Under the pieces are notes generated by a model, which did not search any database, had not been told where the DNA came from, and saw nothing but the letters and a program-made list of their open reading frames with translations. The translations under genes and the position numbers were made by a program. Shown here piece after piece: positions 1-52,336 of a DNA stretch of 63,638 nt (its first letter is position 1; each line of letters begins with the position of its first letter). The DNA is taken from NCBI GenBank assembly GCA_002499195.1, contig DAKS01000047.1, forward strand, positions 1 through 63,638. The letters run 5' to 3'. The DNA comes from Euryarchaeota archaeon UBA443 (lineage in GTDB: Archaea > Thermoplasmatota > Poseidoniia > Poseidoniales > Poseidoniaceae).

Positions 1-35
1 CAAGACTCAAGAGAATGAGGCACAACATTTGACCA

Positions 36-1100
36 ATGTCGGAGGAACTCATCGATTCGGATATTCGGATGGCTCAGACCCTTCCCTCCGAATTTTACAC
101 CGAGGAGAAGTACTTCACAAAGCAGATGGAGGAGATCAGGCAGTGCCTCCAATTTGTTGGCCATCAAAGTGAATTTGATTCCGATATGACTCCGATTCCA
201 CATCTTGAAGCTATTTTGAAGCAACCTCTTCTTCGAACGAATCATGAATCAGAGAAGCACCTTCTTGCCAATGTCTGTACTCATCGTGGCATGATCTTGT
301 GTCAGGAAAAGAAAAACGGAAATTCAATTCAGTGTAAATATCATGGAAGGACATTCGAAAAAAATGGAAAACTAAAACACATGCCTGGATTTGAGAACGT
401 TGAAAACTATCCAGCAGATTCTGATAATCTACCTTCTCTCAATCTTGAAGCATGGTTTGGATTTGAATTCACCTCCCTCAATCCTTCTCTGAAACTTGAA
501 TCGATCTTACAACCTATTGAGCAGAGATTGAATTGGTGGGTGAAGGATTTGAATCTACAACACGATGCTGCAAGAGATCGTGAATGGGATATTGATGCAA
601 ACTGGATCCTGTATGTTGATAATTATCTAGAAGGTTTTCACATTCCATTCGTTCATCCAGAACTCAACAACGCATTATCGAAAGAGGAATATTCAACAGA
701 GTGTTATGAAAACGCTGTTTTACAGATTGGAATGGCTAATGAAAACGATATTTGTTTTGATATTCCTGATGATGCTGTCGATGCTGGAAAACGTGTTGCT
801 GCATATTATTGGTGGCTTTATCCAAACATGATGATGAACATCTATCCATGGGGCGTTTCAATGAATATCATCGTTCCAACTAGCGTGAATACGACGAAGA
901 TCTTGTTCAGAAGTTATGTTCAAAATCCTGAACTCTTAGAGATGGGGGCTGGAGCTCTTCTCGATAAGGTTGAACTTCAAGATCAGAATGTTGTAGAAGG
1001 ATGCATGCGTGGACTTCGGTCCCGCTTGTATCATCGTGGGAGATATTCCGCAATACATGAAAAAGGAGTCCATCATTTCCACATGAAACTTACGCGCTAG
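36..1100 (+). CDS. Rieske non-heme iron oxygenase alpha subunit (choline monooxygenase-like)
   Basis: Rieske ligands NVCTHRG...CKYHG; mononuclear Fe motif DNYLEGFHIPFVH plus distal Asp (ELQD). Confidence 0.9.
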   Translation: MSEELIDSDIRMAQTLPSEFYTEEKYFTKQMEEIRQCLQFVGHQSEFDSDMTPIPHLEAILKQPLLRTNHESEKHLLANVCTHRGMILCQEKKNGNSIQCKYHGRTFEKNGKLKHMPGFENVENYPADSDNLPSLNLEAWFGFEFTSLNPSLKLESILQPIEQRLNWWVKDLNLQHDAARDREWDIDANWILYVDNYLEGFHIPFVHPELNNALSKEEYSTECYENAVLQIGMANENDICFDIPDDAVDAGKRVAAYYWWLYPNMMMNIYPWGVSMNIIVPTSVNTTKILFRSYVQNPELLEMGAGALLDKVELQDQNVVEGCMRGLRSRLYHRGRYSAIHEKGVHHFHMKLTR

Positions 1101-1112
1101 ATTGTTCTTTTT

Positions 1113-3689
1113 TCAGAATTTCGTATATTGTTTTTCTACAAAATAACGGTGTTGTTCATTAGCAGGAGGCTTTCCTCGCCGGATCAACATAATGAGTAGT
1201 ATTGATATCAAAATAAGAACTGATATGGCTACAACAGCTCTCACCTCTTCACTATCCATTGAATTTTGTTCGATTTTCACTTCTGTTTCGATATCGATCG
1301 AATCGTCACAGCCATCGGGTATCATATCTAGATCTAAGTCGATAGCATCATCATGTTCTGGACAAATATCGAATTCGTCTGCTACACCATCATTATCCGA
1401 ATCGATCAATTCATCACACCCATCTGGAACACCATCAGAATCAATATCTATGGAATCATTATGGTTGTTACAAATATCTGTTAAGTCGGATACGCCATCA
1501 CCATCGGAATCAATCAATTCATCGCATCCATCAGGGATATCATCAGCATCAACATCGACTGTATCATCAAAATTATTGCAAACATCATCCGCATCCGAGA
1601 CGCCATCATTATCTCTATCGATGAGATCATCACAGCCATCTGGTATTGAATCAAAATCACTATCGATTAAATCGTTGAAGAACGGGCAGGCATCTTCTGC
1701 ATCCGAAACTCCATCGGAATCAGTATCTAATTGGCTGTCGCTACAACCGTTTACATAAACGGATTCTCCAATCGGAGTTTCTTGACATAAGTCATCTACA
1801 TCCATGATCCCATCTTGGTCTGCATCAGTAGTACTTCCTGGTTGTCGTTGTTCTTCACTACAACCATCAATATACACTTCTGTTGATTCTGGAGTATCAG
1901 GGCAATCGTCTTGGTCATCGATTACTCCATCGGAATCAGAATCTAAAATTGGATGAAATAAATCATCCATAGCGGATGAGATTTGCGCATCCCAACGTAA
2001 ACCGTGTTCTCTCAAGCCTGCTTCATTGAAATGAATTGTATCGTAACGCCATTGCGTACCATTCAGATCGTCGGTATGAGGCCCAGGGAACGTCAATGGA
2101 TCATCTTCAATCACTGCGTTTTGGCCCTCGATTATCCATCCCATCTTCACAGAATCTCCGTTGGGAACAAAACTTACTCGAGCCACAATCCAAGGAATCT
2201 CATAACCTGCATGTTCTCTACTTCCAAGCACGACTTCTCCTAACATTCTAGCATAATCTTCCGCACTTGTTCCGCCAGCATTGCTTTCTCCCTGATGCCA
2301 TAGGATGGCTCTTGCACCACTCGGCTCAACAGCATCTAATGCATCTGTAATTCTTGAAAACAGATCGTTCTGTTCTGGCACCCATCGATCGACTGGTGTA
2401 CCGCCATAACCCACTGAAAGAAAACCAATGGGAACATCATATCGAGCTGCTAGCAAATCTCCAGCAACTGGCCAAGGAGAACCACTATTTCCTGTAGCAG
2501 CAGGTTGGGGATCATAGCCAAAACGCCAACCACTAGCCCCCCAAGTGCTCACTCTAGAGTCAGTAGGAGTAAGTGGAGCATCGCCATGATTTGCAGAATT
2601 CGATTGGCCAGCAACAATGAATACTTCTCCAACTCCAACTGGATTTATGACTTGAGTCGCTAGTTGATTACCATCTTGCATGAAACGTAGTTCTAGTCGA
2701 TGCCAGCCAGTTGGAACCTCAATCACGCCATAGAAATTCGAACTCAAAGGTACTGCGATAGAAACCCATTCAGATTCAAAACTAGATTCGAGATCGATAT
2801 ATCGGCCTTCGATTAAATCGACTGCATATTGTGTTGTTCCACTGACTGGAAAAATACCCTTGTTGTATTCATCTCGTTGAACGATTTGATGATCATCAGG
2901 TGAATGTAATGTTATCATCAATTCCGAAGGAGTAGGCCCTGGGCGTACAAGAATTGTCATGCTTTTCAGAGTATAATCTGCAGCGTTTGAAGAAAAAGTC
3001 CAATCTGGATGTCCACTCTCATCGGGGTTGTTTCCTATGCCAAGATCATCTTGATTAGAACCACCCCAGGCATTGTATGCGAAGAGTGTCTGACCCGACT
3101 CGTAGTCATGTATTTGCATACTTCCATAACCAGCAGAATCAGCACTATATTGAGAGTCGGCAATATCGTAAATTGAATCGTTTCCATTGGGAACACCTAA
3201 TGAGTCCGCAGTTCCATAATTAGTCCCCCAGAATTCAATGACTCCCGTATCAATTGTACCAAGTGAGGAAAGATTCTGGTGATTGGATTGGATTTCAACA
3301 TCCGTTAATAACCGATTGTGAACAATTCCAGAATTAAAGGTCGGAATCCCTAACTCATCAGCATTTGTAGTAATGCTGGGAAAGGAGACAAAGACCCATG
3401 TTCGAGGTTGATTTGGCTTCTCTAATTCAAGATAGTAAGCAACCCGATCGAAAGTAAAATCAATGCTTGAACTAGAATCGATTGAGTACGGTATTTGTCC
3501 GTTATTGTATTGAGCCTCATCAGGGATATCTAGCTGATATACGACCGTGTAATTATCCGAACCGTCTACATCATCTGAGACTGTTTCTTGAATCGGATAA
3601 GAATCAGTAAGTAAGACTTCAGTCGGAGACTTCCATGTAGATACTAGAAGAAGAAAAATCAAGGAAACAACAACTTTTCCTCGACCCAT
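1113..3689 (-). CDS. Membrane-anchored SGNH/SASA-type O-acetylesterase with TSP3-like Ca-binding repeats
   Basis: Signal peptide; GQSN, WHQGESN and DTIH motifs; many DxDxDG..D..D.C repeats; C-terminal TM followed by RR. Confidence 0.8.
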   Translation of the reverse strand: MGRGKVVVSLIFLLLVSTWKSPTEVLLTDSYPIQETVSDDVDGSDNYTVVYQLDIPDEAQYNNGQIPYSIDSSSSIDFTFDRVAYYLELEKPNQPRTWVFVSFPSITTNADELGIPTFNSGIVHNRLLTDVEIQSNHQNLSSLGTIDTGVIEFWGTNYGTADSLGVPNGNDSIYDIADSQYSADSAGYGSMQIHDYESGQTLFAYNAWGGSNQDDLGIGNNPDESGHPDWTFSSNAADYTLKSMTILVRPGPTPSELMITLHSPDDHQIVQRDEYNKGIFPVSGTTQYAVDLIEGRYIDLESSFESEWVSIAVPLSSNFYGVIEVPTGWHRLELRFMQDGNQLATQVINPVGVGEVFIVAGQSNSANHGDAPLTPTDSRVSTWGASGWRFGYDPQPAATGNSGSPWPVAGDLLAARYDVPIGFLSVGYGGTPVDRWVPEQNDLFSRITDALDAVEPSGARAILWHQGESNAGGTSAEDYARMLGEVVLGSREHAGYEIPWIVARVSFVPNGDSVKMGWIIEGQNAVIEDDPLTFPGPHTDDLNGTQWRYDTIHFNEAGLREHGLRWDAQISSAMDDLFHPILDSDSDGVIDDQDDCPDTPESTEVYIDGCSEEQRQPGSTTDADQDGIMDVDDLCQETPIGESVYVNGCSDSQLDTDSDGVSDAEDACPFFNDLIDSDFDSIPDGCDDLIDRDNDGVSDADDVCNNFDDTVDVDADDIPDGCDELIDSDGDGVSDLTDICNNHNDSIDIDSDGVPDGCDELIDSDNDGVADEFDICPEHDDAIDLDLDMIPDGCDDSIDIETEVKIEQNSMDSEEVRAVVAISVLILISILLIMLIRRGKPPANEQHRYFVEKQYTKF

Positions 3690-3786
3690 AACTTCGGGAA
3701 TTCATAGTGAGATATATACCCCTACATCTAAAATCACGGGAAAAACCAATCAATAAACTACTATTAGAGCAAACATGGGGACGAGA

Positions 3787-4146
3787 ATGAATAAGGTAAA
3801 TCTCACTGAAAAGTTTGCTCTCTTTTCAGAGCACTGGACGCCAAAAATTATTGCAGAACTAAATGATTACCAGATCAAGATAGTCAAAGTTGAAGGCGAT
3901 TTTGTGTGGCATGATCATTCCGATACGGATGAATTCTTTTTTGTCATCGAAGGTACATTATTCATTGAATTTGAATCCGAAACAATGGAATTGAATGCTG
4001 GAGAATTGTACGTTGTACCTAAGGGAGTTCAACATCGTCCATTCGCAAAAGCAGAATGTAAAGTCATGCTAATAGAACCAAGAGGCATAGTGAATACTGG
4101 AGAAGTAGATAGTGAATTGACCGCTTCAAATGACGTGTGGATTTGA
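3787..4146 (+). CDS. Cupin domain protein
   Basis: FVWHDHSDTDEFFFVIEG and VPKGVQHRP cupin motifs; start could be 3775. Confidence 0.9.
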   Translation: MNKVNLTEKFALFSEHWTPKIIAELNDYQIKIVKVEGDFVWHDHSDTDEFFFVIEGTLFIEFESETMELNAGELYVVPKGVQHRPFAKAECKVMLIEPRGIVNTGEVDSELTASNDVWI

Positions 4147-5217
4147 TCACTCTTCTTCTAGATATTTCTTTGAAATATTAATTGCAAAATTAGATTCCAT
4201 TTCTTCAATTGCATTACGGAGAACTAGGCCATGGTATAACTTGATTTTCTTTTCCTTTACCATCACATTGACAACTCTTTCCAATTCCATTAATTCTTGT
4301 TCTGATTCTGCCAATTCTATCTTCTTCAAACACTTCTTGAATTCACCTCTACGTGCAAAGAATATTACAAGATAAATTGGAATAAGAAGAAGTGGAATAA
4401 CCAATTCTTCAAAGATAATTTCGCTCAATCCTGACAAAGAGATTTCAAAACTCTCTGGATCGTATTCACTAGTAAATGAGTCAGCATTTAGTCCACCGCG
4501 ATAGAAAAATCCCGTATTAATGCCCATGTACATATTGAACGGTGTGGATTCAGCATCAAAAGCTTCTGAACCGCGGTCAATTTCAACATCGTCTGGCCAT
4601 CCATCATTATCATTATCGAAATCAATAATGTCTGGAATAGTATCTTTGTCCGAGTCTAATGGAGTTGATTCAGAATTGTAAGGATCGTATAAGATAGTAC
4701 CAGAAGATGCTGCTCTTTCCATCTCATTACGTATTCCATCTCCATCCGCATCATCATCATACTCATCGGGCATGAAATCTCCATCAATATCTGAACATCC
4801 TTTCAAGCGAATCTTACTCTTTCCGTATAGATAAGGACAGTTATCAGACATCTCATGCTGAGTTTGGTCAGCATAGCCATCACCATCCGAATCAGACCAT
4901 ATCACTGAATCCTCTGGCCAAACATCGATTTCGTCGTTGACGAGGTCGCCATCCATATCCGGATCACTAACATCGCCTATTCCGTCACCATCGAGATCCC
5001 GATGTTCAGATGCGTTGTTGGGAAACGCATCGGCACCCATCGAGGCATTCCAATGTTCATCGGGATCAGACCATCCGTCTCCGTCCGAATCTAAGCAACC
5101 TATCCGATCTTGTGTTGAATCACCTGCTTCACATTGAGGTGTTGTGTCATCGGCAACAGAAATGGCAGGAATAACAAAAAGAAACGATATCAAAATCGGA
5201 AGAAAGCGTTGTTTCAT
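4147..5217 (-). CDS. TSP3-repeat membrane protein
   Basis: Signal peptide, DSDGDGWSD/DLDGDGIGD repeats, one TM near the C-terminus, short helical tail. Confidence 0.75.
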   Translation of the reverse strand: MKQRFLPILISFLFVIPAISVADDTTPQCEAGDSTQDRIGCLDSDGDGWSDPDEHWNASMGADAFPNNASEHRDLDGDGIGDVSDPDMDGDLVNDEIDVWPEDSVIWSDSDGDGYADQTQHEMSDNCPYLYGKSKIRLKGCSDIDGDFMPDEYDDDADGDGIRNEMERAASSGTILYDPYNSESTPLDSDKDTIPDIIDFDNDNDGWPDDVEIDRGSEAFDAESTPFNMYMGINTGFFYRGGLNADSFTSEYDPESFEISLSGLSEIIFEELVIPLLLIPIYLVIFFARRGEFKKCLKKIELAESEQELMELERVVNVMVKEKKIKLYHGLVLRNAIEEMESNFAINISKKYLEEE

Positions 5218-5301
5218 GATTATTATTATTCATTGGTATATATTGCCTTTTGGAAGGCTAGAAGGGAAAACATTTCAATAGCATCAGTAGTAGTTGGTAT
5301 C

Positions 5302-5832
5302 ATGCTGAAAACCAATCTCTCTCTATTTGTTGTGCTCTTGTTCATCTCGGCCAGTCTTGCTGGATGTACATCAGAGGATGCTGAAGAGATTCAGATGTTT
5401 CCTCAATTCTCGAGCGTCGCTGATGATGGAGAAACATATGACAATGAACGCATGGAAGGAAACCCTTTCATCGTGATTTTCTCGGCGGAATGGTGTAATC
5501 TTTGTTATGATACAATGTTTTCAATCTGGGAAACTGAAGCGGAACTACCTGTTCTTGTAATGTCTACTGATCCAGCTGAAAACGCTGGCGGGTATACTCT
5601 ATCAGAGTGGCATGATTCTGCGAATGCAAGTGATGACCAAGATGATGATGTAGGGATTACCCTATCTTCTTACGCTTTCATGAAGGGTGTTGAAGCCGGG
5701 CAAGAACTAGGAATAACATCTCCAGGAACCGTAATCTTCGTGAATTCTGAAGGAATAATTACCAATACTCACGTTGGAGTTTTAGATGATACAGCCCTAA
5801 TTGCAGAACTATGGCAAGAAGCATCACTATGA
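5302..5832 (+). CDS. Thioredoxin-fold (TlpA/redoxin-like) lipoprotein
   Basis: Lipobox SLAGC; FSAEWCNLC CxxC motif; start moved to ATG 5302, with TTCAAT box at 5274-5279. Confidence 0.8.
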   Translation: MLKTNLSLFVVLLFISASLAGCTSEDAEEIQMFPQFSSVADDGETYDNERMEGNPFIVIFSAEWCNLCYDTMFSIWETEAELPVLVMSTDPAENAGGYTLSEWHDSANASDDQDDDVGITLSSYAFMKGVEAGQELGITSPGTVIFVNSEGIITNTHVGVLDDTALIAELWQEASL

Positions 5833-5872
5833 TGATGCAAAAGATATATTCTAGATACGTTCTGGCAGTGTC

Positions 5873-6235
5873 ATGGTCTTCACACATGATATGTCAGACT
5901 GGTTAAATTTCTCAATCGATGAGAATTGGCTAAACGAAAATATTTCTTGGAAAGATTTCGGAACCGGTGTTCGATTAGGAAAACTCAAGCGTGAAGAGAA
6001 AACATCACTTGTTCTCTATGAAGCTCAATCCGAAGTTGAAGTGGATGCTTTCATGCCTCATAGCCATCCTGGAGGCGAATGTTACGTCGTCCTCGAAGGA
6101 GAAGTGTGGGATGAGGATGGAACCTATCCAACAGGATCGATCGTCTGGATGAATCCTGAATCGGCGCACACACCGAAAACCCGTGGCAAGACGCTAATTC
6201 TTGTCCTATGGCCTCAGGGTGTCAAATCAGTTTGA
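5873..6235 (+). CDS. ChrR-like cupin protein
   Basis: MPHSHPGGECYVVLEG and NPESAHTP motifs. Confidence 0.75.
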   Translation: MVFTHDMSDWLNFSIDENWLNENISWKDFGTGVRLGKLKREEKTSLVLYEAQSEVEVDAFMPHSHPGGECYVVLEGEVWDEDGTYPTGSIVWMNPESAHTPKTRGKTLILVLWPQGVKSV

Positions 6236-7499: not shown

Positions 7500-10400
7500 T
7501 TATTCCCCCTTTAGCACACTGGCCAAATCTGCTGTTAACGCTCTTCGTGTTGTGACTAATAGTGCCACAACAACCGCAGCAAAGACCGCCAAGGACACGA
7601 GAATAATCTGTGACCATGGATAGACCAATGTCCGTTGTATCGTCGTCGATGACCCTCCAAATATCTGGAAGATAAATCCGAAGATATCAAAGAATCCGTT
7701 GAATGAGAGTGCCAATCCAACACCAAGAACGATACCAAGTGCCATGGAAACAACAACGATTGAAAGAATCTCGAACAGAACCAATCGGATGATTTGATTT
7801 GGTGATGCACCAATAGCTTGCAAGACTGCCAACTCTTTCTGTCGTTGACTTAGTACGAGCGAAAGGAAAACGAAACTGGAAGCTACAGCTGCAACACTCG
7901 CTACAACAAACTGCAAGGAAAGAAGACCTGGTGTACCAAAAATGAGTCCACCATTTCTCTCAACTTCCTTATGGGTACTCGACCAATCAAGAACACCGGA
8001 TACACGCGCATCTGCTTTAATCTGCGATGCAAGCGATTCCAGAGATTCTCCAGATAGTCCGTCAACGCGTACAATCCATGTTTTGGAAGTGAAATTGTCC
8101 GCAGCATCATCTCCAACGAGATCACGCCATGAATCTTCACCGATGATCAAGGCTGAAGCAATCGTTGCTGCACCGACACCTGGAATGTATTCGTGCGTCC
8201 CCATGTAGTACATGGAGGTCTTGTGAGGCGTTATGATAAGTTGGACTCGAGTATCCGCTAAGAAGAGATCCGCTGCTAGCGGTGGCGGAATTTCGCTCGC
8301 ACCACTTACACAACCAGTGTCATCGCTGTTGGTTCCATCAGGACATGTTGTGTTCGACAAAACCGATGATGAGAGGTCAAACAATCCAAAGGCACCTGCT
8401 AGATTTGCATCCGTGAAATCAGCGTCTTCCAATGAACCTCCCATAAAATTGACAAGAATTGCATTCTCAAGATTGGCTCCAGTCAAGTCTGCATCGCTCA
8501 GGTTCACATCAAGAAGAATAGATTCGCTCATGTTCAAATTCGAAAGGTCCGCACCAGTTAGGTTGGTGTTGGATAGGTCAACGCGCCCCAAATCTCTTTC
8601 ATTCAAGTCTTGGCCTGAGAGATCAAGTCCACTCCAATCAGCATCCATGAGTTGCGTGTACGAATCAAACAGAGCAAGCGGATCAGTTTCATTCGAACCG
8701 CCAGATGTGAAATTGAATTCGATCTCTTCCCAAACAAATGTTATTTCTCGGGATTTCTCATCACCTTGCTCGAGTAAGACATCGTCAAGCTTATTCTCGT
8801 CACCGCCACGATCTGAACCGGGCAAGTTAAGTGAATATGCAGAATCTTGACCAGCGGAGAACCCGTTGTTTGAATAGCCCTTCATTGCAGAATCAATGTT
8901 TGTTCCTGGAATAGATTGTTCACTCCAACGTAATACGTCTTCGTTGCCATCGAACAGCACGAACGTTTGCAAACTATCGCCGCCCTGTTCATCAGCAAGC
9001 GTAATTTCGGGTACACCTGTTGCAACTGGAATCACATCATCATCTGTAAACTCGTTAACAAGGGAGATGAGGGTTGTCGAATTGATGGCCTGTTCGGTTG
9101 AGATTTGGAGATCGGACCCGACGGTTGCATCAGCGGTCTTCTCATCAACAAGTGTCCCTGTATATCCTTGAACAGCTGCTAGGGTAACGATGGAAAGGGT
9201 GAGAAGCATAATTACAGCAAGTCGATTGACCGATTCTGCCGATCCTGATCCCTTCAATCCTCTCTTGACATCCTTGAGAAGCGGTGAACGCCCGAACAGG
9301 AGTTGCATGATTTGTGGGCCTTTCGCACCAATTCTTCCGAGAAGTAACGCCCCTCCAATCCATAGAGCAAATGGGCCGATAATTCCAATCAATCCTTCGA
9401 TGAAGAAATTGGAAACAATACCGTCTTCACTACCGTTCATTTCAAGCCAAGTATCAATCACTGCAAGCATACCGAACAGGAAAGCCGTCCAGTGAAGCCA
9501 CCGTTTTGGTTCTGCTTTTACCGTTGTTTTACGAACTCCCTCTTCGATTTCAAGTTCAATGAACTCTCGAGCTCGACTGCGTCCGAATATCATGGCAAGT
9601 CCCAATGTAGTGATCGCCGTGAACAATGTTGAACCAATTCCAAGTGTCGGATTAACATCAAAGTCACCTGTTCTGAATTCCATAAACCCTACTGCGGAAA
9701 GAACGATTGGTACTGCCATAAGAGCCAAGATATACCCGATGAGCCAAGCAACTGAAGACATAACAAACAGTTCCAAGAGAACCATTCCTTGCAGATTCTT
9801 TCCATCCGCCCCAATCACACGATGAATGCTAACTTCACGCCGTCGTTGTTCAAGAGAAAGAACCAATCCATAAATGAGAACTGCAAGGGATAAGAACACG
9901 ATTGGAATCATAATGATGTAATCGAATATTTGGATCAATCCAAGGAAAATATTGAGGAACAGAATCGTCCCTGAAACAATATCGGTGTAATACAATTCTA
10001 CGCCTGCATCGGTGTAATTACCATCTTGCACCCGAGTGCCTAGATCTTCAAGCCATTCAGCAGCGTCAGCTGTTGAAGTAGTGGGTAATTGTCCTCGATC
10101 GATAGTAACGCCAAGGTACATGTGATCGTTGTTCATGAGTGTTTGACGTTGTTCTTCCTCAAGCACTTCCCACGTAGTGAAAATAGGATTGAATGGGAGT
10201 GTAGGATTACCGAGATCCCATGGCTCATAGATACCCATAACGGTTAGATTTTCAACTGTCATCCACATCCTACAGTAGATCATTTCATTGTTTTCAGGCG
10301 TTATTTCTCCAGCACAGTTATCCTCGGTAATGCTTGCTTCAAGAATAGTTGATTCATCGACAACATAGGCGAAGGTGAGTTCATCAAGAACGTCTCCAAC

Positions 10401-23087: not shown

Positions 23088-23188
23088 AGTAGTGCCTCAG
23101 CAAGCAACCGACCTAAACCCTCTTCTTAACCGCTTCGCATCATCTCCAAACTACGTTTTTGATGTAAGAAGGCGAAGATGTCAAATCT

Positions 23189-24379
23189 ATGTGGGTTAAA
23201 GATGAAATTATGGGAGCCTCTTTTGCCGATGCAAAAATAGGTCCTGACGGTTATTACAACACTGATATTGGAACGCCATTACCCGTTAGTGCCAGCGATC
23301 TGGAGCGCTTCATGTACTGTCCACTCTCATGGCAACTTGCGAAAGAAGGGGCATCTGGAGTTGGTGAAGCCGTTGAAGAAGGCGTTGAAAAGCACAAAGA
23401 AATCCATAATGAAATGAGTGATTTTCAAGAGGCTTTGATTCGCATGCGTCGTTCACTTCTCATTTGGTCATGGTGGTACGGCATCATCCTAGCCTTTGTC
23501 ATCGATGCGATTGCGTTCGTCTATATCGATGATGTAATGAATTCGCCAATTGAATTCGCAAAGGTCCTATCGATGTGGTCTGTTTCATGTCTTATTGCTG
23601 GAATTCTTTCAATCACCCTACCTTGGCGTAGTTGGCTTGATTTTGAACACGATATGAAGGAAATTCGTGAGGTGAAAAAACGGTTTGCATCGATTGGCTT
23701 GGAACCAACTTGGAGCCCAATTGGTTTCCTCGGAGGATGGTTTTCGGCAGGTAAAACCGAAGCAAGTTTGCTACTCGCTACAATCGTTATCGGAACCCAT
23801 TCCATCGCACTCGTCGCTGCTGAGGATCGAAGTCAAGCTGGATTTATTCTCATCGTCGTCGCCTTCATTTGGACATTTTTAGCAACATGGCAACTACAAC
23901 GCTCGCTCAAAGCAGAAAGCCAAATGATTGCCAGTCGGAAGAAGGTCGGATTTGAGGAAGGGACTGAATTGATTTATTCAGACAAGGACAATACCAGTAA
24001 TCTTCTGATCGATGATGTTTCAGGGCTTCGAGGAAGACCCGATCAAATCGTCATCATTGAAGGTGAATTCATCCCTGTGGAGCAAAAGACAGGACGAATT
24101 CCTAAGAAACCACATCAGTCTCATCGACTACAGCTTCTGGCATACATCTCATTAGTTGAAACGAGTACAGGTAAATCACCGCCATACGGTGTGCTTCGTT
24201 ATGGTGAGGACGATGTCCACCAAGTCTTCTGGGACCAACATGCCAAAGAACATCTTCGAGAGAGCATCGTCGAAGTTCAACGATTGATGGTCGAAGGCGA
24301 TGCGAAGCGAAATCACGAACGTGAAGGAAAGTGTCGAAATTGTAGCAGACGATATGCTTGCAATGAATCGCTTGTCTAA
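23189..24379 (+). CDS. Solo Cas4-like PD-(D/E)XK nuclease with internal TM helices
   Basis: SASDL..FMYCP; GRPD, VEQKTG, QLLAY; C-terminal CRNC..RYAC; four hydrophobic segments in between. Confidence 0.82.
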   Translation: MWVKDEIMGASFADAKIGPDGYYNTDIGTPLPVSASDLERFMYCPLSWQLAKEGASGVGEAVEEGVEKHKEIHNEMSDFQEALIRMRRSLLIWSWWYGIILAFVIDAIAFVYIDDVMNSPIEFAKVLSMWSVSCLIAGILSITLPWRSWLDFEHDMKEIREVKKRFASIGLEPTWSPIGFLGGWFSAGKTEASLLLATIVIGTHSIALVAAEDRSQAGFILIVVAFIWTFLATWQLQRSLKAESQMIASRKKVGFEEGTELIYSDKDNTSNLLIDDVSGLRGRPDQIVIIEGEFIPVEQKTGRIPKKPHQSHRLQLLAYISLVETSTGKSPPYGVLRYGEDDVHQVFWDQHAKEHLRESIVEVQRLMVEGDAKRNHEREGKCRNCSRRYACNESLV

Positions 24380-24927
24380 TCGACAATGCAAACGTCATCT
24401 TGAGGATAAATAGTACACGTGCGTGTTACATCAACGCTCAAAATAAAACTGTCTTGCTCCTCAAGGATTCCTGCTCCGGTTCCGACAATATTGATGTTCC
24501 ATTCACCAGAAATAAATTTACCATCTGATTCTGGATCAATCAATACGTAAGGGGCTGTTTTTGTCGTGTCGTGTGTGGCGTTGTACTTGATTTCTCCAGT
24601 TGCATCTGTAATGGTCACTTCAACTTCGCGAATATCAAAAATTTGAGGGAATTGATTGCGAAAATCACTCAAGAGAAAATCAGTTTTGAAATAAACACCA
24701 ATCTTAGCAACTTCAGAGTCGACTGTGAATTTTTCATTCCACTCTTCTTCGATTTCCCCACCGGAAAAGGAATACTCAATCAGGGTTGTTTCAATGGACG
24801 TATCTTGCTTAACATCACCACGCAGGTACTCCATGTACTCTCTTCCCTGAAGAAGACCAATACAACCAGATGTCGATAGAAGCAGCATCGAGAGGGCCAC
24901 GAAGACCGTCAACATCCGCTGCTGCAT
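24376..24927 (-). CDS. Hypothetical lipoprotein
   Basis: Lipobox-like LLSTSGC after a hydrophobic signal; beta-rich mature part. Confidence 0.6.
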   Translation of the reverse strand: MQQRMLTVFVALSMLLLSTSGCIGLLQGREYMEYLRGDVKQDTSIETTLIEYSFSGGEIEEEWNEKFTVDSEVAKIGVYFKTDFLLSDFRNQFPQIFDIREVEVTITDATGEIKYNATHDTTKTAPYVLIDPESDGKFISGEWNINIVGTGAGILEEQDSFILSVDVTRTCTIYPQDDVCIVD

Positions 24928-25075
24928 GGTTATGGCCAATCGACTCAACAATATGAAAATCACCCCGTCACGGGGAAGCGTTCAAACGAATGATGTGTTT
25001 CAAGCAAAATGCCTGAATGACGCAATGATGACTCCGAGCGCAAGCGATGACGAACCCTATGAGTGCTGACAGGCA

Positions 25076-47151: not shown

Positions 47152-50100
47152 TCATGCCGATACGAACTGTTCAGAGGAAGCGCCACAGTTTGAACATGTG
47201 TCTACATTTTGACAGGTTGGAGAATCGGCATGATATCGAGCACCACAGCCTGGGCATCCTTGCATTGGACCATTGATTGGGGAGCGGCACGACCAACAGA
47301 TCGGTGTTTGTTGTTGAACCACTGGTGATGCGATTGCGGGCGGGTTATTCTTAACGACAGGAGTAGCGGCTTTTGATTGAAGAATGTATAAAACTGCGAG
47401 AAGTCCAACGAGAAGAGCGATTCCTGCGCCGATATAGATCATTGCATTACTTCCAGAAACTGGTTCTTCGAAGGATGCTGTAATATCAACGTTAACCGAT
47501 GTCGTCGATGTTTCAACATCTTGTACACCCGTGAGCCGGAATGTGAGTTGTTGAGTGCCTGTACTTTTGCCGTTCACTTGAATAGTAAATTGTTGGGAAT
47601 CGCCAGCTACTGCATTCACGATATCATCTCCAACGATGGCAGCATCAAGGCCTTCGGTCGTTTCAATTACCAATTGATGCGATAGGTCCGTATTGCCCGA
47701 ATTCAAGATACGTACCTGAAGCGTTCCAGAACCTGTTTCATCGAGAGTTGAAACGCCTGTCACCTCCCACTCAACACTGCGTTGTTCAGCAACGAGCATG
47801 CTGGTCCCTTCGGTCAATGATACATCGTCATCGAACAAAGTAAAGGAAAACGACGGTTGGGTAGCGACTTCGAGAGCCGGAGGCAGTAATATCGAACAAA
47901 CCACTGGGACTACTTCTTCCGCAACCGTACCAACGTCAAAACATTCACCGAAAATGCCTTGCGATAAAGAGGTTGTAATCGAAGGATTCCAAGGAACATC
48001 TGCTTCATTGATAAGAAGCCATGTGAAGGTCATTTCCTGGCCAACAGGATGAGAACCTGGACCAAACGGATGGTCGAAGGTCCGGCCGTCTTCAAACTCC
48101 AATTCAGAAAACGTTAGCGATGGTTGTGGTAACTCGAGAACATCGATCTGCCCAATCCAGCTAAACCGTTGTACTCCTACATCAAGATTCAACTGGATTG
48201 GACCCGATAGAGCATTGCCATTTCCTTTGATGGAGACGAGGATGTTCTTCGATTGCTCTGTCCAGCCCATTTCGATGGCTTGGAGTGATGTCTGTAAAGT
48301 CCATCCAGTTGGAAGAGATAAGCTTGGAACGAGTGTCATATTGACATTGCCTCGATTTTCAATAGTGAAGAGAAGATTGACCAAGGCGTCCGAAGGAGGC
48401 GTCCCAATGTTCGATTCAAGGAGGATTTCCACCTCACGAACTTCCATCACTTCGATGGGAATGTCAACCTCCCATGTTTGTGATGGTTCAGTTTGTGAAA
48501 TAGCGGTCAATGAAACCATTCTTTGTGCACCTGCTGCAGTTGAGACTTGAGGGGGCGTGAACTGCATACCAACATCCATTTGACCACTTTTAGGAATCAA
48601 TCCTGTAGAACCCGATGTTGCACCAGGATCGGCACTCAAATCGGTGAATCCTGCACTCCAACCTGAAGGGGCTTGCAAGAAGAGATCGTAACCTATCTCC
48701 GTATTTCCATCGTTGAAAACGCGAATCGTTAGATTGGTTGGATCGGCAGGATGCACAGGTACAATCGTATAGTCGTATTCGATTCGGAATTCTGGAATAT
48801 CAAGTACATCTAGATAGAGAGAAAGTGGATATGAAATTCCATTGTCGACATCAAGACCAACAATATCGATACGGTACAAACCTGGTGGAGGGGCTTCAGG
48901 ATAGACTACAGTCAACGACACTTCTGCAGTTCCCTTTCCTTGCAATGAAAAGTTTGATGCAGTCATTCCAAGATACCAAGAAACTTCGGAATCATCTGAA
49001 TCCAAATACACTCCGAGAGCATCTATCGACGCGTTTGTTTCCAACAAGGCCGTATTTTCCAACGTTAAATTCCACGTCGAAGTGGTCTGTTCTGCATATT
49101 GTACCTGACGTTCGATAACATCAGATGTAACCTTCACGCCAGGAGCAGTTACATCAACAACCTTGGCCAATATGTTGTTATTTTCTTGGATTTCATCGAT
49201 TATATCATCGGGATCGATGATGAGTTCAAGCGTAGTAACTCCTGATTGTTGAGGCGTCCAATACCATGTGGATTGGCGGCTTGCACCGGGGTTGATGTCC
49301 AGCGTCTTTCGGTCCAGTTCAACCCCGTCAACATTGAAAGTAATATCGACCGATTCAGCCTTGATATTTCCTGCATTGAAGACCTCGGTTGTCAAACGAA
49401 CCTGATCTCCAACCTGAGGGATTGTAACATTCAATTGCATTGAATTGAGAACAACTTGAGGGTCAGGTCGTAAATCGTTCACACCTTGTCCAGAAACAGC
49501 GATTGCAAACGGTTGTGAACCACTTCCAGCATGATAAGCGTCCTTCACACGTACGGTCCAGATGCCTTTCATTGCCGCATCGATAAGGACAACCTCAAGG
49601 TTGTTGATATCGTCTTTTGTACCTCCAGTCGTCGAACGACCATTTGCAAAATCATTGCCGAGATATATTGTTCCATCAGGAGATTCGACTTCTAAATCGA
49701 GATCGTTGACCAAGGCTTTACTGGCAAATCTACTTCCTCGATAATCCGACCAAGCAAGCACTGCTTTGAGTTGTGAATTGGCGTATGTAACATTGAATAC
49801 ATACGATTTCGAAGTTCCCGAACTCGCCAAAACCGAACGGTCATCGACCCATATTCCTCTTCCTTGGGAAGGTGCAAGTGTTTCCTTTAGGTTTACACGC
49901 CCCCAACCTTCGTCATTGTTCGGAATGTCTCTTGAGTTGATATCTTGTGCACCAAGGACTAGAAGCGCTTTCACCAAAGCACCTTGAGGCGATGGTCTTT
50001 GGGCAATTTCGATAAGATATTCACGAATCAGTGTGGCAGCGCCTGCTGCATTAGGTGTTGCCATCGAAGTTCCTGTATACTCAAGATACCACGTCGATTG

Positions 50101-51627
50101 CCAACTTGAACCTGCGATGTCTTGTGCTTCTTGCGCACGACAAGAACGTACGTAACCACCTGGTGCGATGATGTCCGGTTTGATGCGCCCATCATCTGTC
50201 GGCCCACGGGATGAACCTGACATTAGATTATCTGGCGCTCCACTGTATCGTGCTTGGTGATTTCCAATAGTGACAACGTTCTTCGCCGTCGAAGGGGAAC
50301 CAACCGTTCCAGAATTTGGACCATCGTTACCTGCTGCAAACAAGATGGTGAGGCCTTCTTGTCCATTGCTCACTTTATCGTAATTGAAGGCTCGATCATC
50401 AACTGCTTCTGATTCTGAGGTGTATTCACCTTGTGTCGATGTTGCCGAAGAGCCCCATGAATTTGTGTGAATTCTCGCACCCGCATTGTAGGCTGTATTG
50501 AGTAAATAATTCAACGAAGGTGAGGCAAAATTACCTGTATTGTCGTTTTCCATTGCTTGGAAGTAAAGCTCCGCATCCGGCGCTACCCCTGCATAACCTC
50601 CTTTGCTTCCGTCGCCTAGGACTGTACAAGCAACGTGCGTTCCGTGACCTGAATGTTTGTCAGCTGTTGAACCATCGCCAATAACGTCGTAATTTCCAAC
50701 GATGCGTGTTCCAAAGTCGCCATGATCCTCATCCAATCCTGAATCTGCAACTGCTACGATTTGTCCTGAACCATCGAGATCGGTCGTGAAGTAGGATTGC
50801 ATAGTGTTGATTTTCATGTGGTTCTTTGATTGATCGTTATCAAACGCCATTTGAGGTTCAAACCTCAACCACATGACTGAAGGCTGTCGGACTACATCGA
50901 GCAATGAGTCGATCGCAAGATGCCCACGATACTGTCCTTGATCTAGATGCTCAAGATCATCCAGCGCAATTGCAGCAACTTCAGACAATTCTTGTACGAT
51001 GGTGTTGCCTTCAATATCAGTGATGGAAAGCGAGTCTAATTGCTGTTCACTCCACCATCCCTCAAGTCGAACTTCTTCGCCTTGCAACGCTTGTATTCCA
51101 CTTTCGAACATCGCTGCATCAAGCATAGAATCATCCAGGAACATCGCAAGAGGGACGTCCCATTGTGCAACTACACTCGGTATGGATTGAGCATGTGCGA
51201 GTGCGGATGAAGTACCTTGAACCATCAAACCGGATGGCCCAATAAATTCCCGAACTTCAAGACCCGATATTTCAGAAAGGTCATTTCGAACTTCTAGCAT
51301 GTGTCGATCGTTATCGATAAGGAGTAATTGGACGTCCATTCGGGGTTCGAGAACATCGCTGGATAGAGGTCGATTGAGTTCAAGTCCGTTGATTGAGAAT
51401 TCTCCAAGACGTGAATGCGCTACAACAGGACGTTGCTCTTGAACCGATGAGGATTCATAAGTTCCTACAAAATCTGAATAGGCATCGGTACGTATTGAAA
51501 AAAATTCTACATTTCTTTCGTCTTCGAGGTTTGGAGATGACTCTTGCTCTGGGCCGACCATTGAACTCCAAGGACTCATCAACAAGAGAATGAGAATCCC
51601 AAGGGCAAGACGTATTTGTCGCTCCAT
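47152..51627 (-). CDS. Membrane-anchored S8 subtilase (KP-43-like) with CARDB/Ig domains and zinc-ribbon tail
   Basis: Catalytic VADSG, HGTHVA, GTSMATP, oxyanion AAGN; CARDB; TM; CWSC..CPGC and C..CSNC. Confidence 0.9.
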   Translation of the reverse strand: MERQIRLALGILILLLMSPWSSMVGPEQESSPNLEDERNVEFFSIRTDAYSDFVGTYESSSVQEQRPVVAHSRLGEFSINGLELNRPLSSDVLEPRMDVQLLLIDNDRHMLEVRNDLSEISGLEVREFIGPSGLMVQGTSSALAHAQSIPSVVAQWDVPLAMFLDDSMLDAAMFESGIQALQGEEVRLEGWWSEQQLDSLSITDIEGNTIVQELSEVAAIALDDLEHLDQGQYRGHLAIDSLLDVVRQPSVMWLRFEPQMAFDNDQSKNHMKINTMQSYFTTDLDGSGQIVAVADSGLDEDHGDFGTRIVGNYDVIGDGSTADKHSGHGTHVACTVLGDGSKGGYAGVAPDAELYFQAMENDNTGNFASPSLNYLLNTAYNAGARIHTNSWGSSATSTQGEYTSESEAVDDRAFNYDKVSNGQEGLTILFAAGNDGPNSGTVGSPSTAKNVVTIGNHQARYSGAPDNLMSGSSRGPTDDGRIKPDIIAPGGYVRSCRAQEAQDIAGSSWQSTWYLEYTGTSMATPNAAGAATLIREYLIEIAQRPSPQGALVKALLVLGAQDINSRDIPNNDEGWGRVNLKETLAPSQGRGIWVDDRSVLASSGTSKSYVFNVTYANSQLKAVLAWSDYRGSRFASKALVNDLDLEVESPDGTIYLGNDFANGRSTTGGTKDDINNLEVVLIDAAMKGIWTVRVKDAYHAGSGSQPFAIAVSGQGVNDLRPDPQVVLNSMQLNVTIPQVGDQVRLTTEVFNAGNIKAESVDITFNVDGVELDRKTLDINPGASRQSTWYWTPQQSGVTTLELIIDPDDIIDEIQENNNILAKVVDVTAPGVKVTSDVIERQVQYAEQTTSTWNLTLENTALLETNASIDALGVYLDSDDSEVSWYLGMTASNFSLQGKGTAEVSLTVVYPEAPPPGLYRIDIVGLDVDNGISYPLSLYLDVLDIPEFRIEYDYTIVPVHPADPTNLTIRVFNDGNTEIGYDLFLQAPSGWSAGFTDLSADPGATSGSTGLIPKSGQMDVGMQFTPPQVSTAAGAQRMVSLTAISQTEPSQTWEVDIPIEVMEVREVEILLESNIGTPPSDALVNLLFTIENRGNVNMTLVPSLSLPTGWTLQTSLQAIEMGWTEQSKNILVSIKGNGNALSGPIQLNLDVGVQRFSWIGQIDVLELPQPSLTFSELEFEDGRTFDHPFGPGSHPVGQEMTFTWLLINEADVPWNPSITTSLSQGIFGECFDVGTVAEEVVPVVCSILLPPALEVATQPSFSFTLFDDDVSLTEGTSMLVAEQRSVEWEVTGVSTLDETGSGTLQVRILNSGNTDLSHQLVIETTEGLDAAIVGDDIVNAVAGDSQQFTIQVNGKSTGTQQLTFRLTGVQDVETSTTSVNVDITASFEEPVSGSNAMIYIGAGIALLVGLLAVLYILQSKAATPVVKNNPPAIASPVVQQQTPICWSCRSPINGPMQGCPGCGARYHADSPTCQNVDTCSNCGASSEQFVSA

Positions 51628-51691
51628 TAATTTCAACCTCGATTGGAAGACGCATTTATCGCTATGGGTAAATTGTTTGAACAAACCATCA

Positions 51692-52336
51692 TCAGAACAG
51701 TCGTGTCGTCGTTTCGACTTGATCGACAAAGGTTTCGGATGCATAAGTTCCGACGACATGATTTACTTCCAAGAAGTTTTGACTGTTATCGAACATCGTA
51801 TACCTTACTGATATCTTGAGCGTATATTCGTCCCAGACAGTGTAACCCAATACTATCATCTCCAAATCATCTCCTGCAAGGGAAGAATGTGCTTTGACCG
51901 TATCGACTTCAATTCTCATGGTTTGAATTAGTACGTCTTGGGAATCAAGAAATTGAACTTCAACCACAACATCATGTATCGCTCGACTTCCATCATTTTG
52001 TAATTCGGTCATTACCAAATGGCCGCCACGTTGCATGTAGACCGTGTGAATCTCAACATCATCACGTGGGATGACCCAGTACCAACCACTGGCTACTAAA
52101 CCGACCAAGAGCATCAGAATTAATCCAGCAATGGCTACTCGTGCAGGATTGATGTTTCGAATACGTTCCTTAACGAAAAGAGCAACTTCTTGCGCTTGCC
52201 GATAAGCTTCAGCTTGTTCAGGGTCATTCAAATCAAGACCCATTTTCATGGCATCCTGGCGTTGGGTTGCTTCCAGCAAACCCATGGGTTTGGCAGCGAC
52301 GATATCGTCTTCATGAACCACTAATTCATCATCCAT
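51692..52336 (-). CDS. Single-TM hypothetical protein with Ig-like C-terminal domain
   Basis: One TM, beta-rich C-terminus (ELQNDG); GGTGA SD; start 5 bp after the upstream stop. Confidence 0.7.
   Translation of the reverse strand: MDDELVVHEDDIVAAKPMGLLEATQRQDAMKMGLDLNDPEQAEAYRQAQEVALFVKERIRNINPARVAIAGLILMLLVGLVASGWYWVIPRDDVEIHTVYMQRGGHLVMTELQNDGSRAIHDVVVEVQFLDSQDVLIQTMRIEVDTVKAHSSLAGDDLEMIVLGYTVWDEYTLKISVRYTMFDNSQNFLEVNHVVGTYASETFVDQVETTTRLF

Follow-up and report, generated by a model that had tools for sequence, protein, structure and literature searches.

A predicted membrane-embedded nuclease of the Cas4 family in Poseidoniaceae and other Thermoplasmatota

Cas4-class iron-sulfur nucleases are known as soluble enzymes that are involved in CRISPR adaptation and in DNA-end processing. 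Here we describe a gene from an archaeon of the family Poseidoniaceae (UBA443) whose 396-amino-acid (aa) product, denoted P0001, appears to be a nuclease of this class that is interrupted by four transmembrane (TM) helices. The gene lies on contig DAKS01000047.1, in a stretch of 63,638 nucleotides (nt) that was analyzed at its full length and is hereinafter referred to as the window. The original prediction, made from the sequence alone, described it as a Cas4-like nuclease split by TM helices, with neither a CRISPR array nor another cas gene close by.

The iron-sulfur nuclease domains of Dna2, AddB/AdnAB, and EXO5, along with the related MGME1, belong to the same fold class as P0001. The substrates of Dna2, AddB/AdnAB, and EXO5 are free DNA ends, and the strand is often passed beneath an arch held by the cluster. 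All these domains are soluble and are usually fused to, or partnered with, helicases; unlike P0001, none of them is known to contain membrane helices inside the domain. Membrane-anchored nucleases, such as EndA/NucA and RNase Y, act on nucleic acids at the membrane surface and possess a single terminal anchor and unrelated folds, with several of them facing outwards. In contrast, the anchor of P0001 is predicted to be an even array of hairpins that is placed within the catalytic domain and faces the cytoplasm.

Cas4 itself (PF01930/TIGR00372/COG1468; SSO0001, 4IC1; Pcal_0546, 4R5Q; type I-C, 8D3L; Cas4-Cas1, 7MI4/7MI5) has its full motif set in common with P0001, namely, an N-terminal Cys, a His, D...ExK, QxxxY, and C-x2-C-x5-C. 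Unlike Cas4, P0001 has this domain interrupted by a 171-aa insert with four predicted TM helices and, unlike the CRISPR-associated Cas4, the P0001 gene is chromosomal, vertically inherited, embedded in housekeeping synteny, and accompanied by neither cas1/cas2 nor a repeat array. Cas4-family genes that, like this one, are located outside CRISPR-cas loci have been described as solo-Cas4 in a phylogenomic survey, in the text of which the word 'transmembrane' does not occur (Hudaiberdiev et al. 2017, PMC5704561). Among the archaeal solo-Cas4 proteins, biochemical study has been limited to that of M. mazei, which binds a [4Fe-4S] cluster, shows metal-dependent DNA nuclease activity, and forms a soluble complex of ~318 kDa, with no membrane mentioned (Rentz et al. 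2025, PMC12501428). This activity is the one predicted for P0001; neither of the two papers describes the membrane-embedded design. Yet another distinct Cas4-like clade, in which DUF2779 is fused to a DEDD nuclease, was reported in a 2026 paper and is not membrane-embedded. The original prediction presupposed a family that had not been characterized already; indeed, we found neither a characterization of this family nor any description of a membrane-embedded Cas4 design in the open-access literature (an arCOG note or a subscription paper might exist), and Pfam (2025), NCBIfam r20, and PADLOC contain no dedicated model for it.

The gene and its parts, with positions given for the window, are the following:

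23189..24379, plus strand: the whole gene, 396 aa (P0001), stop codon TAA at 24377-24379; predicted membrane-embedded Cas4-family nuclease
23279..23422, plus strand: N-terminal Cas4 module, aa 31-78, helix with C44 (codon 23318-23320) and the predicted metal ligand H69 (codon 23393-23395)
23423..23935, plus strand: insert splitting the domain, aa 79-249 (171 aa), predicted to consist of a stalk helix, two TM hairpins, and a cytoplasmic loop; missing from the membrane-free relative P0261
23453..23539, plus strand: predicted TM helix 1, aa 89-117, Kyte-Doolittle mean 2.11; continuous with the H69 helix (AlphaFold2 helix 60-116)
23549..23626, plus strand: predicted TM helix 2, aa 121-146, Kyte-Doolittle mean 2.01 (AlphaFold2 helix 120-143); conserved P145-W146-R147 at its end
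23627..23755, plus strand: loop predicted to be cytoplasmic, aa 147-189, containing 7 K/R; short helix at 153-168, low model confidence at 176-186
23756..23818, plus strand: predicted TM helix 3, aa 190-210, Kyte-Doolittle mean 1.98 (AlphaFold2 helix 189-210); conserved E191 and intramembrane H204
23828..23902, plus strand: predicted TM helix 4, aa 214-238, Kyte-Doolittle mean 2.01 (AlphaFold2 helix 214-253, continuing to aa 253 towards the core)
23966..24376, plus strand: Cas4 / PD-(D/E)XK nuclease core, aa 260-396, with Pfam and NCBIfam matches, invariant columns, and verified codons
24041-24043, 24080-24082, and 24086-24088, plus strand: verified catalytic codons of the core, D285, E298, and K300, respectively
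24131-24133 and 24143-24145, plus strand: verified codons of the QxxxY motif of the core, Q315 and Y319, respectively
24332-24334, 24341-24343, and 24359-24361, plus strand: verified codons of the cluster cysteines of the core, C382, C385, and C391, respectively

Judging from sequence comparison, the set of Cas4 hallmarks is complete in P0001 (C44, H69, D285, E298, K300, Q315, Y319, and C382/C385/C391), and the cysteine and catalytic motifs quoted in the original prediction are all present in the open reading frame (ORF) 23189-24379: MYCPLSW (C44), GRPDQ (D285), VEQKTG (E298, K300), LQLLAY (Q315, Y319), and CRNCSRRYAC (C382, C385, C391). The family matches in Pfam and NCBIfam are confined to the C-terminal part of the protein. 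The PDDEXK_1 profile matched aa 241-392 (E value 3.7e-12, 47.1 bits), and Cas_Cas4 (PF01930) matched aa 271-391, which correspond to positions 48-158 of the 160-position profile (E value 6.6e-10, 39.7 bits against a cut-off of 22.7); in a sequence search of the PDB, the best, weak match was Cas4 4R5Q. Together with the motif set and the structural matches to Dna2 and Cas4 described below, these profile matches sustain the assignment of P0001 to the Cas4-like nucleases. In alignments of 29 and 57 family members, with identity down to 24%, invariant columns include Y43, C44, P45, G282, P284, P296, K300, H312, and Q315 and, further downstream, G334, Y338, R374, H376, C382, C385, and C391, whereas at least 90% of the sequences have H69, D285, E298, and Y319. 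Thus all four cluster-type cysteines (C44, C382, C385, and C391) are invariant across the insert in the 57 sequences. The presumed counterpart of H69 in the Cas4 protein SSO0001 is His62, a metal ligand.

The separation of the first cysteine from the core, put at about 170 aa in the original prediction, could be delineated by comparison with P0261, a 198-aa relative that was detected by exhaustive search and contains no hydrophobic segments. P0261 covers positions 5-158 of the 160 positions of the Pfam Cas_Cas4 profile in a single stretch, and its His (EVHEQ) aligns with H69. BLASTP aligns P0001 with P0261 in two blocks, 33-78 with 6-51 (E value 5e-6) and 250-395 with 55-198 (E value 1e-22); therefore, the insert comprises 171 residues, aa 79-249, and interrupts, at a junction of 3 residues, a Cas4 domain that is continuous in all other respects. 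This junction follows directly on the helix bearing the conserved H69 and precedes the first core strand. P0001 thus lacks the continuous soluble domain of ~160-220 aa that is found in Cas4, with residues 78 and 250 separated by the insert. In a relative with two membrane helices (P0143), positions 2-246 of the PDDEXK_1 profile are matched right through the insert.

The insert shows the features of a membrane domain. Four 19-residue windows, all between C44 and the core, have Kyte-Doolittle means of 1.98-2.11; when the P0001 sequence was shuffled 2000 times, windows reaching at least 1.98 numbered 0.24 on average and 2 at most. In a simple and approximate calculation on the Hessa scale, the sums for the TM segments are between -0.1 and +1.6 kcal/mol compared to at least 13 elsewhere in the soluble parts. 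The distribution of charges is that expected under the positive-inside rule: the short loops 118-123 and 211-217 contain 0 and 1 K/R, respectively, compared to 7 in the 43-aa loop 147-189, and both membrane flanks are basic (RMRR ahead of TM helix 1; QRSLK...SRKK after TM helix 4). A signal peptide is absent from P0001. Assembly of iron-sulfur nucleases takes place in the cytoplasm and, given the positive-inside charges, both halves of the domain should therefore face the cytoplasm. These features fit an integral membrane protein whose helices are even in number, with both termini predicted to lie inside. Within Poseidoniales, W93, W95, W96, P145-W146, E191, and H204 of the membrane part are invariant and D106 is nearly so; identity between divergent members is 41-43% in the TM helices and 59% in the core.

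The AlphaFold2 model of P0001, which was built with the 57-sequence alignment, agrees with this layout. The model has a mean predicted local distance difference test score (pLDDT) of 86.5 and a predicted template modeling score (pTM) of 0.81, with pLDDT of 93-97 for the N-terminal module and low confidence only for aa 1-6 and 176-186. The H69 helix and TM helix 1 form a single continuous helix, and the helix that includes TM helix 4 exits the membrane towards the nuclease core. The rigid connection between H69 and TM helix 1, along with that between TM helix 4 and the core, would therefore hold the active site close to the inner side of the membrane, at a distance of ~3 nm at most; in this model, H69 should be located ~20 helical residues, or roughly 3 nm, off the membrane surface. 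A Foldseek search of the PDB with the model retrieved Dna2 (5eax, E value 2e-4), Cas4 in Cas4-Cas1-Cas2 complexes (7mi5 and 8d3l, E values ~1e-3, root mean square deviation 3.4-3.8 A), and also MGME1, AdnA-AdnB (7sjr), and EXO5 (7lwa). The original prediction had called for such a model and counted about four TM segments, which it surmised would keep both halves on the same side if even in number. The model is confident; hydropathy compared to shuffled sequences, the modeled helices, and the positive-inside charges make the four segments look transmembrane; and the relatives with 2, 4, or 8 helices, as well as the two-gene form with one helix per gene (see below), speak for an even number. The convergence of the four cysteines on one cluster is suggested indirectly, by their invariance, the confident placement of the N-terminal module, and the existence of the two-gene form.

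An artefact, be it of hydrophobic stretches that do not span the membrane or of an ORF composed of two genes unrelated to each other, seems hardly tenable. The Hessa-type sums, being near zero rather than strongly negative, would be compatible with it; against it stand an uninterrupted frame that is shared by hundreds of genomes, the four windows at or above 1.98, of which shuffled sequences contain 2 at most, the invariance of the four cysteines across the insert, the confident single-chain model, and purifying selection that is equal in all parts of the protein.

Our overall explanation, to which we assign a probability of about 0.75, is that P0001 is a CRISPR-independent [4Fe-4S] PD-(D/E)XK nuclease of the Cas4/Dna2/AddB class that is built into the cytoplasmic membrane. 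As far as the sequences and the model go, P0001 combines intact Cas4-type active-site and cluster motifs with a domain that is interrupted by an even number of predicted TM helices, and is conserved, constrained, and CRISPR-independent. The two predicted TM hairpins occupy the loop between the N-terminal helix, which carries C44 and H69, and the first core strand. By analogy with the family, C44 together with C382, C385, and C391 would bind a single [4Fe-4S] cluster stapling the two halves together, H69, D285, E298, and K300 would bind Mn2+ or Mg2+, and DNA would be cut, most likely, at free ends, as it is by Cas4, AddB, Dna2, and EXO5.

The family is widespread. A word-indexed search yielded 1085 related proteins, with the nearest named relatives in Poseidoniaceae, Thalassarchaeaceae, and other Thermoplasmatota, and an exhaustive search yielded 900 related cluster representatives; close relatives are labeled 'CRISPR-associated protein Cas4' or 'Dna2/Cas4 domain-containing protein' in the databases. 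More than 535 loci were detected in a scan of one genome per species, and the best 80 of these all belong to Thermoplasmatota, with Thermoplasmata, Methanomassiliicoccales, DHVE2/Aciduliprofundum, and Haladaptatiplasma among the clades represented. In an even sample of this phylum, 216 of the 301 genomes and 102 of the 134 genera contain a match at E values of 1e-10 or lower, a minority of the weakest of which may be ordinary Cas4. No relatives were found in viral contigs with the patterns used.

Full-length representatives contain 2 (~260-285 aa), 4 (320-410 aa), or 8 (500-600 aa) helices between the first cysteine and the core; the number is nearly always even by crude hydropathy, and the few odd counts probably stem from helices missed at the threshold. 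The 2-helix form is found, for example, in Methermicoccus shengliensis (WP_052353351.1). The hairpins are internal repeats in 4- and 8-helix members (z scores of 5-13), and, on the basis of this sequence similarity, the extra helices appear to have arisen by hairpin duplication. In P0001, the two hairpins have diverged from one another (z score 0.5), and hairpin 2 is similar to hairpin 2 of P0136, a 4-helix relative (z score 5.7). ORFs of up to 906 aa in high-GC genomes were considered as carriers of extra domains and rejected as upstream read-through. A 635-aa metagenomic relative with ~8 helices (P0223) possesses two C-terminal TRAM nucleic-acid-binding domains (PF01938, E value 1.5e-15), a domain composition that fits a nucleic-acid substrate on the cytoplasmic side.

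Many seeming relatives of 170-180 aa, with one helix and three cysteines, turned out to be one half of a two-gene form. The upstream gene of this form encodes 74-89 aa consisting of the N-terminal module (…ASE…YC…W…G..H…) and one C-terminal helix, and the downstream gene encodes 172-180 aa consisting of one N-terminal helix and the Cas4 core with three cysteines; the two genes are 0-1 nt apart or overlap by 4 nt. Examples (positions are those of the respective loci) are:

L118, 1495-2284, minus strand: two-gene form in a complete Thermoplasmatales-type genome
L119, 1153-1962, plus strand: two-gene form in a complete Thermoplasmatales-type genome
L100, 5759-6519, plus strand: two-gene form beside ParA/CbiA, SNase, DUF5131, and a ResIII helicase
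L125, 3780-4528, plus strand: two-gene form beside SSB and DUF3467

Given that the natural split into two genes is located at the outer turn of a hairpin, the two halves would therefore make up one functional unit; it follows that, in the two-gene form, the membrane helices would pair, and the cluster would bridge two polypeptides. In the Thermoplasmatales-type genomes, the two genes are part of a tight same-strand four-gene cluster that also includes an uncharacterized protein and, downstream, a Tyr/Trp-tRNA synthetase. The uncharacterized protein, of 257-264 aa, is encoded upstream (L118:2253-3026, minus strand; L119:386-1180, plus strand), and its gene overlaps the start of the small N-terminal module gene. 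We considered this protein as a candidate ScpA and dropped the assignment given the absence of any sequence match in Pfam, NCBIfam, or the PDB.

In line with the original prediction, there is no indication of a CRISPR connection: the window contains no CRISPR-like repeat array, the 1.85-Mb, 89.8%-complete assembly encodes no Cas1, and the neighbors are housekeeping genes. In the window, the gene is surrounded by those for Dus, ribosomal protein uS2, a lipoprotein, and large surface proteins, with complex I subunits and a subtilase elsewhere in the window and no defense island. The gene order HTH - HTH - Dus - uS2 - nuclease - lipoprotein - CARDB protein - Big protein - KH - RIO is retained across Poseidoniales, and in all lineages examined the neighbors are housekeeping genes. 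The gene is present in a single copy in Poseidoniales, in all 25 of 25 genomes of the genus and in all Poseidoniaceae genomes sampled, and its divergence runs parallel to that of the neighboring Dus gene. In comparisons with orthologs from the same genus, the ratio of nonsynonymous to synonymous substitution rates (dN/dS) is ~0.06-0.07, with dS saturated, and dN in the membrane part (0.08-0.10) is near that in the core (0.09-0.13). The gene, then, is under strong purifying selection, vertically inherited, and housekeeping-like.

Several observations weigh against the reading of P0001 as a conserved membrane-embedded Cas4-family nuclease. The match to TIGR00372, the cas4 equivalog model of NCBIfam, reaches 56.8 bits, which is under the cut-off of 65, and when aa 81-249 were cut out in silico, the Pfam Cas_Cas4 match still fell short of the N-terminus. 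The AlphaFold2 model of an 8-helix member, P0138, is poor (pLDDT 68.8, pTM 0.51). The gene is dispensable: it is missing in five genera of Thalassarchaeaceae with genomes of 1.3-1.6 Mb, where the uS2 and lipoprotein genes adjoin each other across a gap of 80 bp that contains no trace of it. The sole evidence at the RNA level is a 167-nt contig from a marine metatranscriptome that matches window positions 23110-23276 with zero differences and covers 79 nt upstream of the gene along with no more than its first 88 nt; DNA carry-over is possible in this case. Finally, there is no constant partner gene, channel, or sensor across the lineages examined.

The biological role is less certain than the architecture. 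The original prediction proposed either DNA uptake or degradation of viral DNA, both of which are possible. We tentatively favor, at somewhat short of even odds, a constitutive nuclease that would resect or destroy linear DNA ends at the membrane, chiefly those of incoming DNA. In bacteria, RecBCD and AddAB are core, vertically inherited enzymes that nevertheless also destroy foreign DNA ends, and the proposed incoming-DNA role would be analogous to this.

The hairpins themselves are probably more than a passive anchor because the membrane part, to judge from the alignments, is under core-like constraint, contains conserved aromatic and polar residues, and has expanded by duplication. A stronger version, which we consider quite doubtful, would have the hairpin array act as a working module that pairs or oligomerizes in the bilayer, in keeping with the two-gene form, in which a helix of one subunit would have to pair with that of the other, and is rigidly coupled to the catalytic His, so that the nuclease would be membrane-gated or docked on a DNA conduit that delivers DNA directly to the active site as it passes the membrane. 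A dedicated effector against viruses or plasmids, in which the hairpins would sense a membrane event and switch on the nuclease via the H69 helix, resulting in destruction of DNA or abortive infection, would make use of the continuity of the H69 helix with TM helix 1 in the model and of the conservation of polar residues in the membrane part (E191 and H204 invariant, D106 nearly so). It would also agree with the presence of two-gene relatives in mobile-element-like loci, next to ParA/CbiA, SNase, DUF5131, and the ResIII helicase in one case and SSB and DUF3467 in another, and with CRISPR adaptation nucleases being the nearest sequence relatives. We nonetheless regard such an effector as unlikely, considering that the gene is single-copy, vertically inherited, and phylum-wide, lies in conserved housekeeping synteny instead of a variable island, evolves like the neighboring Dus, and has neither a partner gene nor a system-specific PADLOC match. 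The search of PADLOC-DB 2.0 yielded only generic Cas4 models and DruK, which has a PD-(D/E)XK core, all of them only on aa 232-393, and nothing specific to a system.

Candidate partner genes were sought in the neighborhoods. The lipoprotein gene is adjacent to the nuclease gene throughout Poseidoniales and convergent with it:

24376-24963 of the window, minus strand: lipoprotein gene, 195 aa, with a signal peptide, an SGC lipobox-like motif, and a C-terminal Cys pair, and no Pfam match; 4-nt overlap with the nuclease gene at the stop codon

The lipoprotein was rejected as a partner given that it is still there in 15 of the 16 genomes without the nuclease. In other clades, the nuclease gene is located beside thiamine genes or beside pyruvate:ferredoxin oxidoreductase. 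The arrangement TPD - nuclease - GlmS - GlmU is found in two deep clades, at 23 of the ~67 informative loci; the TPD gene (PF14811, E value 1.3e-42; the family of human CDIN1) is directly upstream on the same strand (for example, L093:3419-4222, among loci L020-L099), with gaps of -4 to +62 nt save for a few larger apparent overlaps that stem from over-long ORF calls. TPD was downgraded from partner to clade synteny: GlmS is always convergent downstream, and TPD does not co-track with the nuclease across the 301 genomes, where family f6 mostly has TPD without the nuclease, and several families have the nuclease without TPD.

Such neighborhoods bear on the possibility of a housekeeping role, in which the nuclease would process, at the membrane, DNA of the cell itself, such as repair or recombination intermediates or DNA trapped at the division site. 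Apart from vertical inheritance and purifying selection, the points in its favor are that the gene adjoins uS2 or, in a complete Thermoplasmata genome, L15e, with FtsZ encoded four genes downstream on that chromosome; that a TPD-family (CDIN1-like) gene is directly upstream at 23 loci; and that XPB-Bax1 is encoded two genes downstream in Methermicoccus. These neighborhoods, however, are limited to single clades, the TPD adjacency with GlmS and without co-tracking looks like plain synteny, and no repair pathway known to us depends on a nuclease embedded in the membrane; all told, a role on the cell's own DNA appears improbable. The locus in Methermicoccus shengliensis (L126:4144-8657) encodes the XPB helicase along with the Bax1 nuclease (DUF790), two genes downstream of the 2-helix form. 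In L100, too, the two-gene form is followed, 3.5 kb downstream, by a gene for an XPB-like ResIII/ERCC3 helicase (10040-11554), and these are the only two cases.

DNA uptake for scavenging, whereby imported DNA would be broken down to nucleotides on the inner side of the membrane, would suit the heterotrophic Poseidoniales, with the many secreted hydrolases encoded in the window, including the subtilase and the CARDB/PKD proteins. At 12 loci, all from a single clade, the gene directly upstream, on the same strand, encodes a secreted protein that combines an LTD (lamin-tail) domain with two PLD-like domains and a C-terminal anchor, for example:

L031:683-2725, plus strand: LTD + PLD-like protein upstream of the nuclease gene

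This protein, by its domains, could be an extracellular nuclease or a phospholipase. With no linked genes for a DNA channel or pilus, with the PLD adjacency restricted to that one clade, and with lipids as an equally good target for the PLD protein, scavenging appears very unlikely, and we retain the destruction of incoming DNA ends as the tentative assignment.

Elsewhere in the window, an ORF of 1556 aa (52341-57011, minus strand) has no Pfam match at E values of 1e-5 or lower; it is surrounded by large secreted or surface proteins, including the subtilase that carries CARDB (47152-51759) as well as PKD-domain and Ig-like proteins. Positions 1-6000 have a G+C content of ~40-42%, compared to 45-49% in the remaining window, and encode an 858-aa protein with a SASA sialate-acetylesterase domain.

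A catalytic domain that tolerates 2, 4, or 8 membrane helices in one loop is an unusual protein architecture, and so is the two-gene form, in which two membrane subunits are predicted to share one iron-sulfur cluster. The family is present in most of the Thermoplasmatota sampled, yet is labeled as CRISPR-associated in genomes that are free of CRISPR. The proposal is within reach of ordinary biochemistry. Poseidoniaceae (marine Group II) are among the most abundant planktonic archaea and, to our knowledge, archaea lack RecBCD and AddAB. If borne out, a nuclease that is constitutively active on the inner side of the membrane would be a candidate for the missing archaeal activity by which DNA ends are destroyed where they enter the cell. 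Should the hairpin array prove to be a gated or docked module as well, the family would represent a new class of membrane-coupled DNA surveillance enzymes in highly abundant archaea of the ocean.

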